Shown piece by piece: positions 22,410 to 37,619 of a DNA stretch of 64,000 nucleotides. The notes under the pieces were generated by a model that was given only the letters and a program-made list of their open reading frames with translations, searched no databases and had not been told where the DNA came from. A program made the translations under genes and the position numbers. The DNA is taken from contig JBMNIF010000002.1 in NCBI GenBank assembly GCA_050950765.1, positions 544,001 to 608,000 on the forward strand, read 5' to 3'. Source of the DNA: Bdellovibrionota bacterium (GTDB lineage Bacteria; Bdellovibrionota_C; UBA2361; JAAYZI01). Position 1 is the first letter of the stretch, and each line of letters begins with the position of its first letter.

Positions 22410-25400
22410 ATGCAGAAGTTTACCTTAAGAACCTTGAAATTAGTTGTGCTGTTTAGCTTTTTCTGTGGCAGTCTGGCAGGTGCGGAAACTTTTTTGCCAA
22501 CCACTCAAAATTATAACTATAATTTCAACATCCTAAACAACTTATCAACACCGCCTACTGCACAAAACTTTAATATTAAAAACTTCTCTCTCTTCTCTAC
22601 CTTAAAAAAATCACTCCCCTTTAGAAGAGAGTTCTTTGGAAATCCTCCCCCTTATCTAGCAGCGCAAGTAACCTCCATCTCTATGGGCTACTTTCACGCC
22701 TGTGCTATTGTAGGAGGGCGTCTCTATTGTTGGGGGCTTAACTCCTCCGGTCAACTCGGGATTAACAGCACTGACACCACAACAACTCCAACTTTAACTT
22801 ACGACCCTAGCACAACCTCTTTTACAGGTTTATTAGGTGGTCAAGGTGTCTCTTCTGTTTCTGCTAATGGTTATAACACCTGCGCTATCAACGCAGACGG
22901 TAAACTTTACTGTTGGGGAGAAAATGACTCTGGTCAAGTCGGGAATGGAACTCTAGGATTTGATTGTAAGTATCCAGTATTAATTGAAGATCCAAGTACA
23001 CTTTCTTGTAGTGGTCTTCTAGGTTCAGAAACAGTTATCGCCGTTTCAGTAGGTGCTTCGCCCAACGACACTCCTGAAGGAGAGAGCTCCGGTAGAACTC
23101 ACGTTTGCGCTATAAATGCAGATGATAAACTTTACTGTTGGGGAGATAACACCTTCGGACAATTAGGCGACGGACAAAGCGGAGGGTCTTTACCGCGTCT
23201 TGTAGGGGATAGCGGAACTTTAAATGGAAGAGGTGTTGTTCAAGTTTCAGCAGGATACAGTTTTACCTGTGCTATCAATACAGAGAGTCTCCTTTTTTGT
23301 TGGGGCAAAAACGATTACGGACAGTTGGGGATTTATTCAACAGAAAATACCACCTCCCCCACACCTATATATAATGCAGATCCAGAAAAAGTTGGTGGAC
23401 TTGGAACTGGAAACGATCCAGCGGTTATGTCAGTTTCAGCAGGTACAACTCACACCTGTGCCATAGAGAGCGGATATCTTTTCTGTTGGGGAGATGGTAG
23501 TTATGGAGCGCTTGGAAATGGTGATGGAACAGATAGAAGTTTTCCAGTCGCTATCAATAAAGGATCTCCACCAGGTCAATTAGACGGAAGTATTGTTCTA
23601 TCTACCTCTTCAGGATCTGGTTTTACCTGCGCTATCAACGAGATCGGTGAAATTTATTGCTGGGGGAAAAATACTGATAAAAAACTACTCGGGATTAGTG
23701 GAGTAGATACTAGATTTCCCCAGCTTGTGGCAGGTTCAGATAGTAATCCCAATCCTGGCTTACTAGGCACATATACTGTAAATGCCGTTTCTTGTTCAAA
23801 CTCCGGTCCCTCCTATCAATCGATCTGCGGCATAAACTCACAACATAATCTTTATTGCTGGGGAGATAGTAACTTTGGTCAATTAGGACAAAACTCTACC
23901 ACTACCAATACAACACCGACACAAACACTCTTTAATGAAGACTCCACTTGTAACGGTATCGATGATGATGGTGATGGATTAACTGATGAAGATTACGTTT
24001 CTGTATCTTGTAACACAGGGCTACACGGTTTATGCGCAGCAGGAACAACATCTTGTAACGCCGGAAGTGTAGTTTGTAATCAGACAAATTCTCCTACAAC
24101 TGAGATCGCTTGTAATAATATCGATGATGACTGTGACGGTATAACTGATACTGATGCTGCAGGTTACGGAGCTGCTTGTAATAACGGGCTACTCGGTGCG
24201 TGTTACAAAACAGGCACGATGTCAGTTTGTGATGGAGGAGTTTTAACGTGCTCTGCTCCAAACGTTGAACCTACAACTGAAGTCGCTTGTAATAATATCG
24301 ATGATGACTGTGATGGAGTAACTGATACTGATGCTGCAGGTTACGGAGCTGCTTGCAATAACGGGTTACTCGGTGCGTGTTATAAAACAGGCACGATGTC
24401 AGTTTGTGATGGAGGAGTTTTAACGTGCTCTGCTCCAAACGTTGAACCTACAACTGAAGTCGCTTGTAATAATATCGATGATGACTGTGATGGAGTAACT
24501 GATACTGATGCTGCAGGTTACGGAGATGCTTGTAATAACGGACTACTCGGTGCGTGTTATAAAACAGGCACGATGTCAGTTTGTGATGGAGGAGTTTTAA
24601 CGTGCTCTGCTCCAAACGTTGAACCTACAACTGAAGTCGCTTGTAATAATATCGATGATGACTGTGATGGAGTAACTGATACTGATGCTGCAGGTTACGG
24701 AGCTGCTTGTAACAACGGACTACTCGGTGCGTGTTATAAAACAGGCACGATGACTCTTTGTGAAGGAGGGGTTTTAACGTGTTCTGCTCCAGATGCAGAT
24801 CCAGTAAGTGAAATTTGCGGTAACGGCATTGATGATGATTGTGATGGTGAAACTGATGAAGATTGCAATGCAGAAACTCCTACCCCTACCCCTCCAGCGC
24901 CTTTTGTAGATGCTTGTCCTACCGACCCGAATAAAACTGAAGCAGGAGTTTGCGGCTGCGGTATAGCCGATAGCGATCATAACAATAACGGCATAATTGA
25001 TTGCCTTGACCCGAAGTGGCCGACAACAAAAATAGATAGTATCGTTACACCAAACACCAAACCTGTCACTCCACGGGTAGATGTAGTAAAGAAAAAGGTC
25101 GTCGTTTATATGCAACGTTTTAAACGTGCCGAGCTACTGAAAAAATTACGTAACGTAGTTAACTATGCCAAAAAAAATAAAAGGAAAAAAATTACCTTTA
25201 GGTATGAAGTTGTTCTAAGACAGGTCTCTACTAAAACAACGTATAAAAGTATCACGAAGAAAAAGATTCAATCTCGGATCTCAAAACGTAATAAAGTAAT
25301 CTTTAAGAAACAGCGGCAAGGAACTTACAAAATTAAGTACAGAGTTAAGATCTATAAGAACGGTAAACTTGCTAAGAACACGAAGTGGAGCGATTCTAAA

Positions 25401-33289: not shown

Positions 33290-33407
33290 TAGCAACGGAG
33301 TGATTATAACAGAACTTTTTTATCACCACCCTTGTAGCAACGGAGTGGTTACAACAGATCTTTTTTATCACCACCCTTGTAGCAACGGAGTGATTATAAC
33401 AGAACTT
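33290..33407. repeat. 45-bp tandem repeat x2.6
   Basis: AGCAACGGAGTG starts at 33291, 33336 and 33381. Confidence 0.9.
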
Positions 33408-33449: not shown

Positions 33450-33538
33450 TGGCGGAGAGAGGGGGATTCGAACCCCCGGTAGGGGTAACCTACACACGCT
33501 TTCCAAGCGTGCGCCTTCAGCCACTCGGCCATCTCTCC
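33450..33538 (-). tRNA. tRNA-Ser(GGA)
   Basis: Anticodon arm CACGC-TTGGAAA-GCGTG, long variable arm, GTTCGAATC, encoded CCA. Confidence 0.95.
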
Positions 33539-33622
33539 ATTAAGACGGTAACGGTGCAACTCTATCGACGAGCACCTTTTTTAAAAACAGATAAAAAACC
33601 ATCTTTCAAGGTGTAAAGAGAA

Positions 33623-33709
33623 CGGAGAGGAAGAGATTCGAACTCTCGGTACAGTTTCCCGTACACACACTTAGCAGGCGTGCGCCTTCAGCCACTCGGC
33701 CACCTCTCC
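33623..33709 (-). tRNA. tRNA-Ser(GCT)
   Basis: Anticodon arm CACGC-CTGCTAA-GTGTG, long variable arm, no encoded CCA. Confidence 0.95.
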
Positions 33710-33813
33710 AAATCAGAATACCTTTCTCTCAAAAAAGGCTCTTCTTGGTTTTTATCACTTTTTTATAGCATAAAAAATAATATGTTTAATAATATCAATT
33801 GATAAACAACAAT

Positions 33814-33900
33814 CGGTGGGAAAGGGATTCGAACCCCCGGACCCCTTTCGAGATCTCTGGTTTTCAAGACCAGCGCCTTCAACCACTCGGCCATCCCACC
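33814..33900 (-). tRNA. tRNA-Ser(TGA)
   Basis: Anticodon arm CTGGT-CTTGAAA-ACCAG, long variable arm, no encoded CCA. Confidence 0.95.
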
Positions 33901-34181
33901 ATATTTTAAACGCTATAAGGTGCGTAGAGTAGGCAGAAACGGTAAAAATGGCAAGTCTCTAAACGCTTTTTCCTAATATAGTTATAAGTTTTAGTTAAAG
34001 CTTTTAATTCACTAGCTAGAATAAAAATCGCACGCGGCTCTAAACGCTTTTTCCTAATACTCCTAACTACTTTTCAAAAGAGATCACCTTTAAAGCATCT
34101 ACTTTGTAACGTTTTTTATGCTCTAAAATATTTCTTCAAAAGACTCCCAAAAAATCTTCCTTTGTGTAAAAATGCGCTTGT

Positions 34182-34258
<77 letters not shown>

Positions 34259-34304
34259 CTTCTTACACCTCTTTCTTTTTCTTTTCATCTTGAGTTAACT
34301 CATT

Positions 34305-34775
34305 GTGATAACTAAAAAAACTCCTGATTTTTTAGATATGCTTATGCAGGAAGCTCTGCAGGAGGCTCGTATGGCCATGCAAGCAGGGGATGTTCCGATA
34401 GGGGCTGTCATAGCGCTAAAAGGAGAGATTATTGCGCGCGCGCATAATGAGATAGAGCGTTTAAAAGATGCTACAAAACACGCCGAGCTAACAGCTATTC
34501 AACGTGCTTCGCAAGTTTTAGGAGATTGGCGGCTTTCTGAAACAACTCTGTGCGTTACCTTAGAGCCGTGTCCGATGTGTGCCGGAGCTATTAGACAGGC
34601 ACGGATCGGAACAGTTGTTTTTGCTGCTCACGATGAAAAACGGGGAGCGCTGGGATCTCTCTTTGATCTCTCTCTGGATAAACGCTTAGGAGCACTTCCC
34701 CGTGTTATTAGTGGCATCAGAAGTGCTGAAGCAATAACGTTGTTACAAGATTTTTTTAAAAATCACAGATCTTAA
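34305..34775 (+). CDS. tadA: tRNA adenosine(34) deaminase
   Basis: HAE and TLEPCPMC motifs, plus DVPIGAV. Confidence 0.92.
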   Translation: MITKKTPDFLDMLMQEALQEARMAMQAGDVPIGAVIALKGEIIARAHNEIERLKDATKHAELTAIQRASQVLGDWRLSETTLCVTLEPCPMCAGAIRQARIGTVVFAAHDEKRGALGSLFDLSLDKRLGALPRVISGIRSAEAITLLQDFFKNHRS

Positions 34776-34777
34776 CT

Positions 34778-35065
34778 TTAAATGCCGAGCTCTTTAATAA
34801 AGGCGACTGAGATCTCTTCAGAGGTCGGGCGATACGCTCCGCTTTCAATCTGAGACGAGATGCGCTCTATCTTAGCTCGACGTTGAGCCTGCTCGCTTTC
34901 TTCGGCTTTACTATTATAAAGTGAAGAGTCTACCGTGACAGCATCATCATTAGCAAAAGATGCTACCTTGTTTGTATCTGTCTGAATTTTTTTTGGTCCT
35001 GAATATAATTGATGGGCAGGATTTCCCAATGCTGTAATAAGTCTGTCTAATTTTTCTGTTCGCAT
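34778..35065 (-). CDS. flgM: Anti-sigma-28 factor FlgM-like protein
   Basis: DAVTVDS followed by RRAKIERISSQIESGAYRPTSEEIS matches the FlgM C-terminal pattern. Confidence 0.7.
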   Translation of the reverse strand: MRTEKLDRLITALGNPAHQLYSGPKKIQTDTNKVASFANDDAVTVDSSLYNSKAEESEQAQRRAKIERISSQIESGAYRPTSEEISVAFIKELGI

Positions 35066-35203
35066 GATTTTACCTCATCCATGAATAGATAACTCCGAGT
35101 GGTACTGCATCAAAGAAACTGCGCTTCACAACTAGCCCCGTCCTTAGGCATTATAAAAATGCGTCTATACAATCCTGACGCAGAGAATCCATTCTAAGTT
35201 TAA

Positions 35204-35231
35204 TTGTCGTCCAAGCTACAAATATCCTTTA
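35204..35231 (-). promoter_or_regulatory. Putative sigma28 promoter of flgM
   Basis: TAAA-N16-GACGACAA (consensus TAAA-N15-GCCGATAA). Confidence 0.5.
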
Positions 35232-35334
35232 GTGGTTTTTTTAAATTTGTAAGAAAATTCCTAAAAAATATAAAATAGGTAACAAAATCAGGGTGTTGCA
35301 CTACGCATTTTTTACACTTTTTGCTATGGAGCGC

Positions 35335-35530
35335 CCTCTCTAAGAAGGTAAAAGGTAGTGACTGTGTGATTGATATTAGTGAGAATGTTTTTACCCCCTT
35401 TACTACAAAGCACTTCCTCTAAAAAAGTAAAAAGTAGTTACTGTGCGATTGATATTAGTGAGAATGTTTTTACTCCCTTTGTCACAAAGCACTTCCTCTA
35501 AAAAAGTAAAAAGGCATTTACTGTAATTGG
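35335..35530. repeat. 79-bp intergenic tandem repeat x~2.4
   Basis: GATTGATATTAGTGAGAATGTTTTTAC and CTTCCTCTAAAAAAGTAAAAAG recur at a 79-bp period. Confidence 0.9.
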
Positions 35531-35705
35531 TGTCAAAGAAAAATATTTTTAAAAAGTGTAAGAGATCTTACAGCAAATTAGAAAAAAATTTGAACGTAAC
35601 TTAAGAGCTAGCTATGGTTTATCACACTTATTAAAATTATCACCTTTACAAAGGTAAAAGATTTATTACGAACGTTGAGATTATCAGAGTAAGGTAAAAT
35701 TTATT

Positions 35706-36164
35706 ATGAACATTGAGATCTTTAGCTTTACAAAGGTAAAAGATTTAGTAGAGGCAGAGCTTCAATATCTTAAACGGCTACAAGGAGACCTATCGCTAAA
35801 GGTGACTGTACTTTCTCAATCAAAGATAAAAGCTACTCCTACTCTTATTCTTGCTGATGAAGCGAAAGAGCTACTCTCTCACTTAAGGCCGACGCAGTAC
35901 CTTATTATTCTGGATGAATACGGATCGCAGATGACTTCAAAAGGTTTTGCGGAGTTGTTGCAAAAGCATCGTAATCAATCAACAGGAGAGTTAGTGTTTG
36001 CTATCGGAGGACCTTACGGCTGGGATGATTCTATTAGAAAAAGGGCGAATGCTACCTTTTCACTATCGAAACTAACCTTCCCTGCGCACGTCGCTAAGTT
36101 TTTATTGATTGAACAACTTTATCGAGCGATGACTATTATTAACGGACATCCGTATCATAAATAA
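35706..36164 (+). CDS. rlmH: 23S rRNA pseudouridine-1915 methyltransferase
   Basis: SPOUT motifs LDEYG, FAIGGPYG, SLSKLTFPAH and EQLYRAMTI..GHPYHK. Confidence 0.93.
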   Translation: MNIEIFSFTKVKDLVEAELQYLKRLQGDLSLKVTVLSQSKIKATPTLILADEAKELLSHLRPTQYLIILDEYGSQMTSKGFAELLQKHRNQSTGELVFAIGGPYGWDDSIRKRANATFSLSKLTFPAHVAKFLLIEQLYRAMTIINGHPYHK

Positions 36165-36251
36165 GTCGCACTCTTTTTCAGTTGTCCTAAATTGACAACA
36201 GATAATAGGCTTTTATACTTTTAGAGACCTTTTATTAAATACTATTTTCTT

Positions 36252-37619
36252 ATGAAACAACCACAGAAGAGAGGAAAAAATTCTTCATGCTTGGAAGTTA
36301 GTACAGCAGCAGAGAGAACTTCTCCTAATAAGATCGCTGAACAGAAGAGGAAAAAAAATTCTCTCTGTTTGGGAGAACGTGTCCGCGTCCACTTTAAAGC
36401 GTTAGCGCACGGCGGCACCTGTATCGGAGACATTACGGAGGGGGCGGCTAAAGGTGTAAAGGTTTTTGCTGCGGGGGTAATTCCTGGAGAAGATGCAGTT
36501 ATCACTATTAAAGAGAATAGAGGTAATTTTTGTGAAGGAGAGTTATCTGAACTTTTAAGCACGGCACCAGCAAGGGTAACTCCCCCTTGCCCTTATTTTA
36601 CACAACCATTAAATGGGTGTGGTGGTTGCGATCTGCAACACATTGAGGTTAAAACTCAACGACAACTAAAACTCGCTTTAGTTCAAAATACGATCTTACA
36701 TCAAGGAGGAGCTTCGGCAAAGAATGGTGCTTCTGATGCTTCAGATGGACTTCCTCCTTTTCACTATCGTCACAGAGTTACGTTACACACTGATAGTAAC
36801 GGTAAGGTTGGCTTCTATAAGAAAAAAAGTGGAGAGTTAATTGAGATTGAACGGTGCTTACTTGTTACAGATGAGATCAATTTAGTTCTTCCTTTTGTTA
36901 AAGAGTTTGTAAAAAAACACCCTGCTTTAATAAGTGGAGTGGTGCTTGAGTTTCATGAAGGAGAGCACTTTTTATTATTAAAGATTGTAAAAGGTAAGGT
37001 GACGGCTTGGGATAGTTGGTTAACGGAGTTAAAACCACATTTTCACAGTATTAAACTTGAAAGTGATGGCGTTCAACTTTTTCAATATAAAAGAAGGGAT
37101 AACACCATCCCTTTTGGACATTTTTCTCAAGTTAATGAAGAAGCAAACGTGCGCTTGGTTAACCTTGTCTGTTCTGAGATAACGGGGAGTGTTATCACGG
37201 AGCTCTACGCCGGTGCTGGAAACTTTAGTATTCCGTTAGCTCAGATGGGAAAAAAGGTTACAGCGGTTGAACTAGATCCTGAATTAACAAAGTATGGCAC
37301 TCTTTTAGCATCTCAGAAAAATATCGCTCCTGAAGATCTGCACTTTATCAACTCTTCTGTTGAACGGTATTTAAAGAGAGCGTCACTTGCAGAAAGTGTT
37401 TTACTTGACCCACCACGTTCAGGTGCGCGCGTTGTAGCGGAAGTTTGTGACCCGACAAAGCAGAGAGAGATCGTGTATGTTAGTTGCAATCCAGCTACTT
37501 TAGCACGTGATATAAAAATCTTTACAACTAACGGTTTTATCTTACAAAAAATAATAACCTTAGATATGTTTTCACAAACTCAACACATTGAGACGGTCGC
37601 TTTACTTTCAAATAAATAA
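36252..37619 (+). CDS. 23S rRNA m5U methyltransferase, RlmD/TrmA family
   Basis: TRAM domain, CPYF...CGGCDLQH, FSQVN, ELYAGAGNF, LDPPRSG, YVSCNPATLARD. Confidence 0.88.
   Translation: MKQPQKRGKNSSCLEVSTAAERTSPNKIAEQKRKKNSLCLGERVRVHFKALAHGGTCIGDITEGAAKGVKVFAAGVIPGEDAVITIKENRGNFCEGELSELLSTAPARVTPPCPYFTQPLNGCGGCDLQHIEVKTQRQLKLALVQNTILHQGGASAKNGASDASDGLPPFHYRHRVTLHTDSNGKVGFYKKKSGELIEIERCLLVTDEINLVLPFVKEFVKKHPALISGVVLEFHEGEHFLLLKIVKGKVTAWDSWLTELKPHFHSIKLESDGVQLFQYKRRDNTIPFGHFSQVNEEANVRLVNLVCSEITGSVITELYAGAGNFSIPLAQMGKKVTAVELDPELTKYGTLLASQKNIAPEDLHFINSSVERYLKRASLAESVLLDPPRSGARVVAEVCDPTKQREIVYVSCNPATLARDIKIFTTNGFILQKIITLDMFSQTQHIETVALLSNK

Follow-up and report, generated by a model that had tools for sequence, protein, structure and literature searches.

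On the minus strand of the analysed window (the whole stretch of 64,000 nucleotides), a FlgM-like anti-sigma28 protein of 95 amino acids is encoded by a gene, here termed flgM2, that stands alone between a deaminase gene on one side and a SPOUT methyltransferase gene on the other (Table 1). The protein matched the Pfam FlgM model with an E value of 3.6e-5 and 24.3 bits against a cut-off of 25 (25.1 bits with neighbouring residues included), and it scored 20.6 against a cut-off of 40.75 with TIGR03824, a model matched by 19 of 19 flgM2 orthologs. A profile of 19 flgM2 orthologs matched the solved FlgM chains 9wsf_B and 1rp3_B with E values of 5e-8 and 4e-7, respectively. We infer that FlgM2 inhibits FliA.

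The sequence upstream of the gene has the features of a sigma28 promoter, namely a TAAAG/TTAAG box, a fixed spacer and an NNCGA -10 box, and fliA is present in the genome. The same -35 box, 15-nt spacer and -10 pattern also precede at least two flagellin genes and a second flgM paralog of this genome. In most flgM2 orthologs, hairpin 1 starts approximately 7-12 nt past the -10 octamer, and the transcription start predicted from the conserved promoter lies upstream of all hairpins, which answers an objection foreseen in the earlier note, a start site downstream of them. Exact contig pieces from four RNA-library runs covered only positions 34742-35153 (gene and leader), with none in 35154-36200; the runs were chosen with the same region and their contigs show neither start nor strand, and they were therefore given no weight. 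The region 34000-36500 yielded no site resembling a terminator. Upstream of the promoter, the intergenic sequence (35309-35551) is filled by a 79-bp unit repeated approximately 2.6 times, of which the genome holds no second copy. Beside the deaminase gene lie four tRNA genes (33453-34255, three with long variable arms, minus strand), near which a 45-bp tandem repeat is found (33290-33407); a 177-bp tandem repeat of approximately four copies at 24093-24884 has coding potential rich in cysteine and aspartate.

Table 1. Features of the flgM2 leader and gene in the window (positions counted from the first letter of the window)
Feature	Position	Strand	Remark
sigma28 (FliA)-type -35 box	35227..35231	-	read from sequence
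sigma28-type -10 box	35204..35211	-	15-nt spacer from -35 box
Predicted transcription start	35195..35197	-	inferred from -10 box spacing
Candidate CsrA-type site 1, AGA-AUGGAU-UCU hexaloop hairpin at 5' end	35184..35195	-	buried in free fold
Inserted hairpin, 6 bp, 11-nt AGGA-containing loop	35160..35182	-	traps remnant of anti-SD linker
Candidate CsrA-type site 2, GCCU-AAGGACG-GGGC hairpin	35135..35149	-	sole GGA exposed in free fold
Fourth GGA, helix strand rather than loop site	35094..35096	-	without ANGGA context; paired in ensemble
Distal strand pairing with site 1 (35194-35187), closing a long rod just upstream of SD	35083..35090	-	MFE and sampled ensemble
Candidate CsrA-type site 3, UUC-AUGGAU-GAG	35072..35085	-	overlaps Shine-Dalgarno GAGGU (35076-35072)
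flgM2, standalone 95-aa FlgM-like anti-sigma28 gene	34778..35065	-	ATG at 35065

CsrA/RsmA proteins recognize an ANGGAN motif in a short hairpin loop. Five GGA triplets occur in the leader (35190, 35175, 35143, 35096 and 35080), as the earlier note had stated along with the promoter-like sequence on the minus strand, but only three are ANGGAN sites in short hairpins with stems of at least 3 bp. The loops of these three are closed by A-U at site 1, by U-G around a 7-nt loop at site 2 and by C-G at site 3, the last of which fits the site consensus U-C-ANGGAN-G-A. The hexaloop CANGGANG is quoted for CsrA targets in the accessible part of PMC4894983 (all papers are cited here from such parts). As judged from sequence, CsrA presumably binds the leader at these sites. 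The proposed loop ACTCGGAGT had to be discarded, because it has no A two bases before the GGA, its drawn stem needs a 1-nt loop and its local fold amounts to -0.3 kcal/mol. The element CATGGATG cannot close as drawn (2-nt loop) but has a valid form, UUC-AUGGAU-GAG, with its hexaloop over the Shine-Dalgarno (SD) sequence. A GGA near the place of the fourth triplet is found in 16 of 36 relatives.

Taken alone, hairpins 1 and 3 have folding energies of 0 kcal/mol, hairpin 2 of -4.6 kcal/mol and the inserted hairpin of -6.9 kcal/mol. In the equilibrium fold of the whole leader, a long rod is predicted (z -1.7; 9 of 200 shuffles fold as well), in which the GGA at 35143 is exposed, with a probability of 0.88 of being unpaired. 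This probability does not exceed 0.06 for the GGAs at 35190, 35175 and 35096, and the GGA at 35080 is mostly paired; site 1 has a value of at most 0.02. The earlier statement that most GGAs lie in loops is thus false for the free RNA at equilibrium. The number of GGAs is unremarkable, as 35 of 1215 intergenic leaders of the genome and 330 of 5000 dinucleotide shuffles have five or more. None of 1883 other leaders and none of 5000 shuffles, by comparison, contained three ANGGAN hexaloops closed by at least 3 bp, a test that used crude ORF starts and a feature picked after looking. Beyond such chance counts, the main support for the element is its conservation across related sequences.

Order-wide conservation of the flgM2 leader

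Orthologs of flgM2 were gathered by protein search to a total of 69 loci; the seed alignment of 19 proteins was partly picked by eye with the leader in view, and later loci were taken by protein score. Four rows were dropped, L112 and L117 because they proved to be flgM1, and G009 and G025 because their leaders were cut by contig ends. A promoter of the form TTAAG/TAAAG-N15-NNCGA lies upstream of 64 of the 69 orthologs, and two of the misses are contig-end cuts. Of the 67 complete leaders, 38 come from outside genus g10, and among these 37 contain site 1, 36 site 2 and 33 site 3; in the 29 leaders of genus g10, the counts are 16, 19 and 21, respectively, and several of these leaders are devoid of the whole element. 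The three GGA sites are therefore kept across the order, as the proposal of conserved GGA loops upstream of flgM orthologs had required.

The spacing between the first and second GGA is 20-24 nt in 34 of 36 leaders, the two exceptions being due to insertion (47 nt in the window, 104 nt in G044). Invariant positions are the A and the GGA of the ANGGAN loops, with the N positions free; in site 2, all 36 aligned leaders share the loop A and the GGA. In 54 of 67 leaders, site 3 and the SD overlap; site 3 was lost, with sites 1 and 2 and the helix described below retained, in four genomes of three families. An extra GGA follows site 2 at a distance of 8-25 nt in 25 of 36 leaders. In most members, site 1 begins directly at the predicted start or no more than a few bases from it; five genomes (G011, G039, G058, G047 and G053) have a long insert between the two.

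An exact pattern of the 5' block gave 19 matches in the genome collection, 19 of 19 before flgM2. A pattern with an unconstrained linker gave 103 metagenome matches, of which 86 were read and 13 precede flgM2; the promoter was present in 13 of these 13 versus 1 of the 73 others, some of the matches being duplicates of genomes already in the set. Strong matches of a covariance model were confined to the order, one per genome, at flgM2, and each of three genomes whose flgM2 leader had not been seen previously had a match before flgM2. Further matches of the model comprised a weak second one in G050 and one in G072 away from flgM2; five weak matches outside the order and a second match in G028 were none of them before flgM-like genes. 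The sequence motif was not found in 33 class-level genomes outside the order, and the element was absent from 19 other flgM-like paralog loci that were read (a twentieth, L172, proved to be flgM2). The motif-bearing records are mostly labelled as belonging to Bdellovibrionota, Bdellovibrionales or Oligoflexia, some to Deltaproteobacteria, Pseudomonadota or just to a bacterium. Rfam gave no match for the window leader or nine related loci, and the literature searched, with most subscription papers outside its coverage, held no description of the element or of an activation of flgM by CsrA. The leader thus represents a cis-regulatory RNA, apparently undescribed and distributed across the order, that precedes one sigma28-driven flgM paralog.

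In four flgM2 loci of genus g10 (L084, L103, L104 and L105), the promoter is positioned 48-63 nt before the ATG, and the element and a recognizable SD are gone although csrA is present. Loss of the element does not go along with csrA loss, as the genomes with site-less leaders keep csrA.

The linker-SD helix and modelled CsrA binding

The linker that follows site 1 (consensus UCUCGUC-N-UUGGC) is complementary to GUCAA-G-GACGAG, the segment holding site 3 and the SD. The resulting helix has 11 pairs, formed in 89.6% of the 396 cells of the 36-leader alignment; percent paired and covariation score exceeded those of all 500 shuffles, and slid registers reached 33-54%. In the fixed alignment, only 2 of the 11 pairs (5 cells) change on both sides, a pair count not above shuffles (127/500). 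Cognate linker-SD duplexes had a mean energy of -13.5 kcal/mol versus -11.6 kcal/mol for swapped ones, in a comparison among kin that are not independent. With pairs fitted by duplexfold in 55 leaders, a procedure that leans toward pairing, matched changes were observed in several lineages: G-C in 37 and U-A in 6 leaders at GGA+3, U-A in 25 and A-U in 10 at -1, and C-G in 39 and G-C in 2 at +1. Such matched changes occur in families f9, f11 and f18, and the metagenome leader L207 has another two-sided change.

One end of the linker doubles as the 3' arm of hairpin 1 and the other as the 5' arm of hairpin 2, so that helix and hairpins compete. The purine arm of hairpin 1, which has no role in the anti-SD helix, is kept as well (A/G with U in 36 of 36 leaders, G-C in 35 of 36). 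The hairpin stems showed no covariation above shuffles, and RNAalifold returned no consensus pairs on the gappy full alignment. G001, the only relative of the window genome in the same family, has a shifted helix that competes with hairpin 2, which indicates that the logic survived a change of register.

In typical relatives, a helix sequestering the SD is present in the modelled free RNA. Binding of CsrA was modelled by a constraint that held loops 1 and 2 open, with at most three closing pairs, in a set of 51 leaders, from which 16 leaders missing a regex match to site 1 or 2 had been left out. With both sites clamped, 33 of the 51 leaders gained >1 kcal/mol in ease of opening of the span -15..-4, and in 3 opening became harder; the corresponding values were 27 of 51 and 4 for -20..+13, and 25 of 47 and 4 for -16..+3. 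When a random 12-nt block was forced open, opening was easier in 4 of 49 leaders and harder in 17. The family means of the clamping gain exceeded 1 kcal/mol in 12 of 15 families; the median modelled gain was just 1.4-1.8 kcal/mol, and approximately a third to half of the leaders had no gain. Compared with a shuffled linker, the native one locked the SD more strongly in 32 of 51 leaders and less strongly in 1, and the median lock was 7.0 kcal/mol in the free state, 5.1 kcal/mol in the clamped state and 5.1 kcal/mol with shuffled linkers. Eleven leaders flagged as being without upstream sites, ten of them from one genus and four merely 16-31 nt long, had weak locks (median 3.2 versus 7.0 kcal/mol).

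From these models, the following course of events is proposed. In CsrA's absence, the linker would pair with GUCAA-G-GACGAG including the SD, and translation would be low. One CsrA dimer would bridge the two 5' hexaloops 20-24 nt apart and hold the linker ends in hairpins 1 and 2, whereupon the SD would be freed and FlgM made. Site 3 over the SD may serve as a second, off-acting site at high CsrA. We give an even chance to this reading of the leader as a conserved two-state cis-regulatory RNA through which CsrA activates FlgM translation. A link between CsrA, FlgM and FliA, as suggested earlier, is likely; the repressing sign given to it is probably the opposite of the true one, because the conserved anti-SD helix of the relatives is incompatible with the two upstream CsrA hairpins and points to activation.

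The window copy is an atypical, rewired member of the family. The GGAs of its sites 1 and 2 are 47 nt apart, divided into 15 and 32 nt by the inserted loop; the spacing given for one CsrA dimer is 18-21 nt (PMC4894983, in part). The inserted hairpin was seen only in the window genome, and none of the 35 other aligned leaders has it at the corresponding position (that of G044 carries a different, longer insertion); within the full leader, it refolds into the rod. The best linker-SD duplexes of this copy are weak (-5.6 and -1.6 kcal/mol), and instead of the classical anti-SD helix, which is absent, there stands the rod ending just upstream of the SD. In the modelled fold, site 1 would be buried in the rod, whose base would lie over the upstream edge of the ribosome footprint. 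Clamping of site 1 made the narrow SD span (-15..-4) harder to open (from 3.9 to 4.9-5.2 kcal/mol), and a gain was seen in wider spans only: the opening cost fell from 8.0 to 5.4 kcal/mol for -20..+13, from 8.6 to 7.5 kcal/mol for -25..+5 and from 13.8 to 8.5 kcal/mol for -35..+5. Shuffling of the middle region matched this gain in 6 of 400 cases, and the free state was no more locked than in the shuffles (191/400). CsrA on site 1 could still open the rod, if less cleanly. The covariance model of the 5' block misses this copy (E 3.1), and a protein search of metagenome contigs yielded no close relatives, so that the rewired fold rests on a single sequence. All three sites are kept despite unalignable spacers. 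The window copy may be a rewired on-switch or a derivative capable of repression only.

CsrA, FliW and flagellar genes of the lineage

The search for csrA, fliW and fliA that the earlier note had called for was positive, and the objection that a csrA homolog might be missing fails. In the window genome, csrA and fliW are located side by side behind an flgL-like gene, fliA scored above the cut-off and nine Flagellin_N matches were obtained. Of 91 genomes of the order, 87 gave a csrA match; the search for fliW covered 41 genomes and was positive in 37. CsrA of the window genome comprises 123 amino acids with a long C-terminal tail and has an asparagine at position 55; the exchange N55D in CsrA blocks FliW binding in B. 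subtilis, according to the accessible text of PMC6529632. SD hexaloops are present on two flagellin leaders of the genome. With fliW beside csrA, N55 in CsrA and an SD site on flagellin leaders, the genome has the marks of a FliW-CsrA homeostat. The leader of csrA itself (L001, upstream of csrA at 446584 on contig C1 of the window genome) contains the hairpin GCC-AAGGAA-GGC just before the start codon, a sequence that suggests autorepression of csrA. A FliD-like gene, named from sequence reading (contig C3, 40364, plus strand), is preceded by a sigma28-type promoter, and its leader contains two candidate ANGGAN hairpins.

Four flgM-like genes occur in the window genome, and many other members of the order likewise have three or four; a literature search for multiple flgM paralogs found nothing relevant. 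The canonical flgM copy sits between flgJ-like and flgN-like ORFs (names from sequence reading). The three loci other than flgM2 are L049 (C1:309519), L050 (C3:210215), which has its own sigma28-type promoter without the element, and L051 (C3:222237), of a short class with a conserved W-L-x-E-R motif. A repeated palindromic box of the TGTACA/TGTGCA type overlaps the sigma28-like promoters of other flgM-like paralogs in relatives (L156, L158, L159 and L147-L152) and is possibly the operator of a DNA-binding regulator. In a FlgM tree, flgM1 was separated (12 of 12, support 0.98), as was the fourth paralog class (10 of 10). The flgM2 proteins did not form one clade in this tree, which held 44 of the 69 in a short alignment, and the label flgM2 therefore rests on profile score and promoter context. 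The leaders of flgM1 (L049 and nine others) are rich in SD-covering ANGGAN hexaloops, which occur in 9 of the 10 versus 73 of 1538 background ORFs, with a 5-bp stem in L049 of the window genome; they are likely conventional CsrA repression sites, to judge by their sequence.

Probable direction and possible meaning of flgM2 control

Activation of flgM2 by CsrA would be physiologically sensible, because CsrA is freed at flagellin build-up, when a brake on sigma28 is wanted. Accumulating flagellin frees CsrA from FliW (PMC6529632 and PMC13443453, accessible parts). In the lineage studied here, unsecreted flagellin would likewise titrate FliW and leave CsrA free; cytoplasmic flagellin would then stop flagellin translation by the known route and, by a new one, turn FlgM on and shut sigma28 transcription.

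The most serious rival is plain CsrA repression, which we consider unlikely: dimers on the upstream hairpins would bridge to site 3 and block the ribosome as on flagellin mRNAs, and the linker-SD helix would only tune basal output or be stabilized by CsrA as for Pseudomonas psl. The fit of site 3 to the consensus U-C-ANGGAN-G-A and its frequent position over the SD speak for it, as does its resemblance to the SD hexaloops on the two flagellin leaders, the csrA leader and the flgM1 leaders, whose enrichment over background would fit a simple repression of the flgM genes of this lineage by CsrA. The first G of site 3 is kept though usually unpaired in the helix, which also fits repression; the extra GGA after site 2 could partner site 3; the window copy has all three sites without a classical anti-SD helix; and gel shifts with the CsrA of C. 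jejuni show binding to flgM mRNA (PMC4894983, accessible text). A leader activated in the manner of ymdA should bear no repressing CsrA site on the SD itself, but site 3 overlaps it here. Repression leaves unexplained, however, why a conserved, covarying helix should hide the SD and site 3 in the absence of CsrA. Moreover, site 3 is less well conserved than the upstream sites and alone was lost in four genomes, the helix has competitors in hairpins 1 and 2, so that binding should weaken rather than stabilize it, and less FlgM during a flagellin pile-up would raise flagellin transcription. Both modes may coexist: flgM2 may be repressed at high CsrA, and conventional repression of flgM may exist in the lineage.

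Sponge RNAs such as CsrB and RsmXYZ carry several GGA motifs in short hairpins. The earlier note had also envisaged titration of CsrA, and an improbable second rival accordingly holds that the sigma28-made leader acts as an mRNA-borne sponge, titrating CsrA as C. jejuni flaA mRNA does and so relieving flagellin repression. With two 5' hexaloops spaced for a dimer, it is similar to the flaA leader, which has two hexaloops 21 nt apart (PMC4894983, in part), and an additional AGGA loop was acquired by the window copy. Against a sponge, there are only 3-4 usable sites, most of them buried in the free fold with one GGA exposed at equilibrium; the region 34000-36500 holds no terminator-like site; strong model matches are single-copy in each genome and tied to the flgM2 start; the seven or more flagellin genes are likelier sinks; and a sponge has no need of the anti-SD helix. 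Unlike CsrB/RsmXYZ, the leader is no free-standing sRNA but has few sites, is fused to a coding sequence and has no Rfam match.

Equally improbable is stability control, in which CsrA at the extreme 5' end would shield the transcript from nucleases and affect translation secondarily. Protection of the 5' end of E. coli flhDC by CsrA is a precedent (accessible part of PMC7652899), and site 1 lies at or near the predicted start in most members; the long insert between the two in five genomes and the anti-SD helix, needless for protection, argue against it. In Salmonella, translation of class 3 flgM mRNA is reportedly FlgN-dependent, and the rearranged window copy is missed by the family model, yet a non-CsrA input (an sRNA or another protein, for instance FlgN or FliW) or a decayed, functionless remnant in the window is very improbable, given the invariant A and GGA among free N positions and the survival of three sites between unalignable spacers.

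Activation is best compared with the E. coli ymdA leader, where CsrA activates translation through two leader sites by destabilizing an SD-sequestering helix (PMC7492729, in part); the flgM2 element shares the two sites and, as modelled here, the destabilized helix. It differs from ymdA in a long-range helix closing a variable insert of 30-120 nt, in hexaloop hairpins whose arms are the switching strands, in a third site over the SD, in its target, an anti-sigma factor, and in its conservation across an order, with activation being modelled only. CsrA/RsmA also remodels SD/anti-SD pairing in P. aeruginosa phz2 and psl and in E. coli moaA, with phz2 and moaA going up and psl down; in psl, the bound loop lies inside the SD hairpin, which binding stabilizes, whereas the bound hairpins of the flgM2 element compete with the SD helix (PMC7652899, accessible part). 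The C. jejuni flaA leader has two GGA hexaloops approximately 21 nt apart like the flgM2 element, and CsrA binds flgM mRNA there, but flaA is repressed and acts as a sponge, and the available text of PMC4894983 mentions no anti-SD switch or FlgM-level effect. The window genome resembles the B. subtilis Hag-FliW-CsrA system in a csrA-fliW pair within a flagellar cluster, in N55 of CsrA and in leaders of the sigma28 type whose SD is covered by GGA hairpins; the B. subtilis CsrA and FlgM limit flagellin as two parallel, independent factors, whereas here CsrA would act directly on FlgM synthesis (PMC6529632, accessible part).

As a more tentative extension of CsrA activation, the leader might be a protein-sensing, riboswitch-like RNA with a band-pass response, in which a dimer on the 5' hairpins unlocks a second FlgM and a dimer on the SD site closes it again; such a design would have been kept through several independent rewirings, including that of the window copy, and may recur in other phyla with FliW-CsrA. 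Few cases of translational activation by CsrA have been worked out, and the flgM2 element offers dozens of natural variants with compensatory changes, site losses and rewirings. The short leader would suit testing in a B. subtilis csrA fliW deletion chassis (PMC13443453, in part). If the activating reading is true, a transcriptional shut-off would be added to the FliW-CsrA flagellin homeostat; a band-pass element would wire this flagellin sensor to sigma28 and give a delayed transcriptional shut-off when filament export slows. If the element works as modelled, a whole bacterial order would join two brakes, in that the sensor of unsecreted flagellin would turn on an anti-sigma factor.
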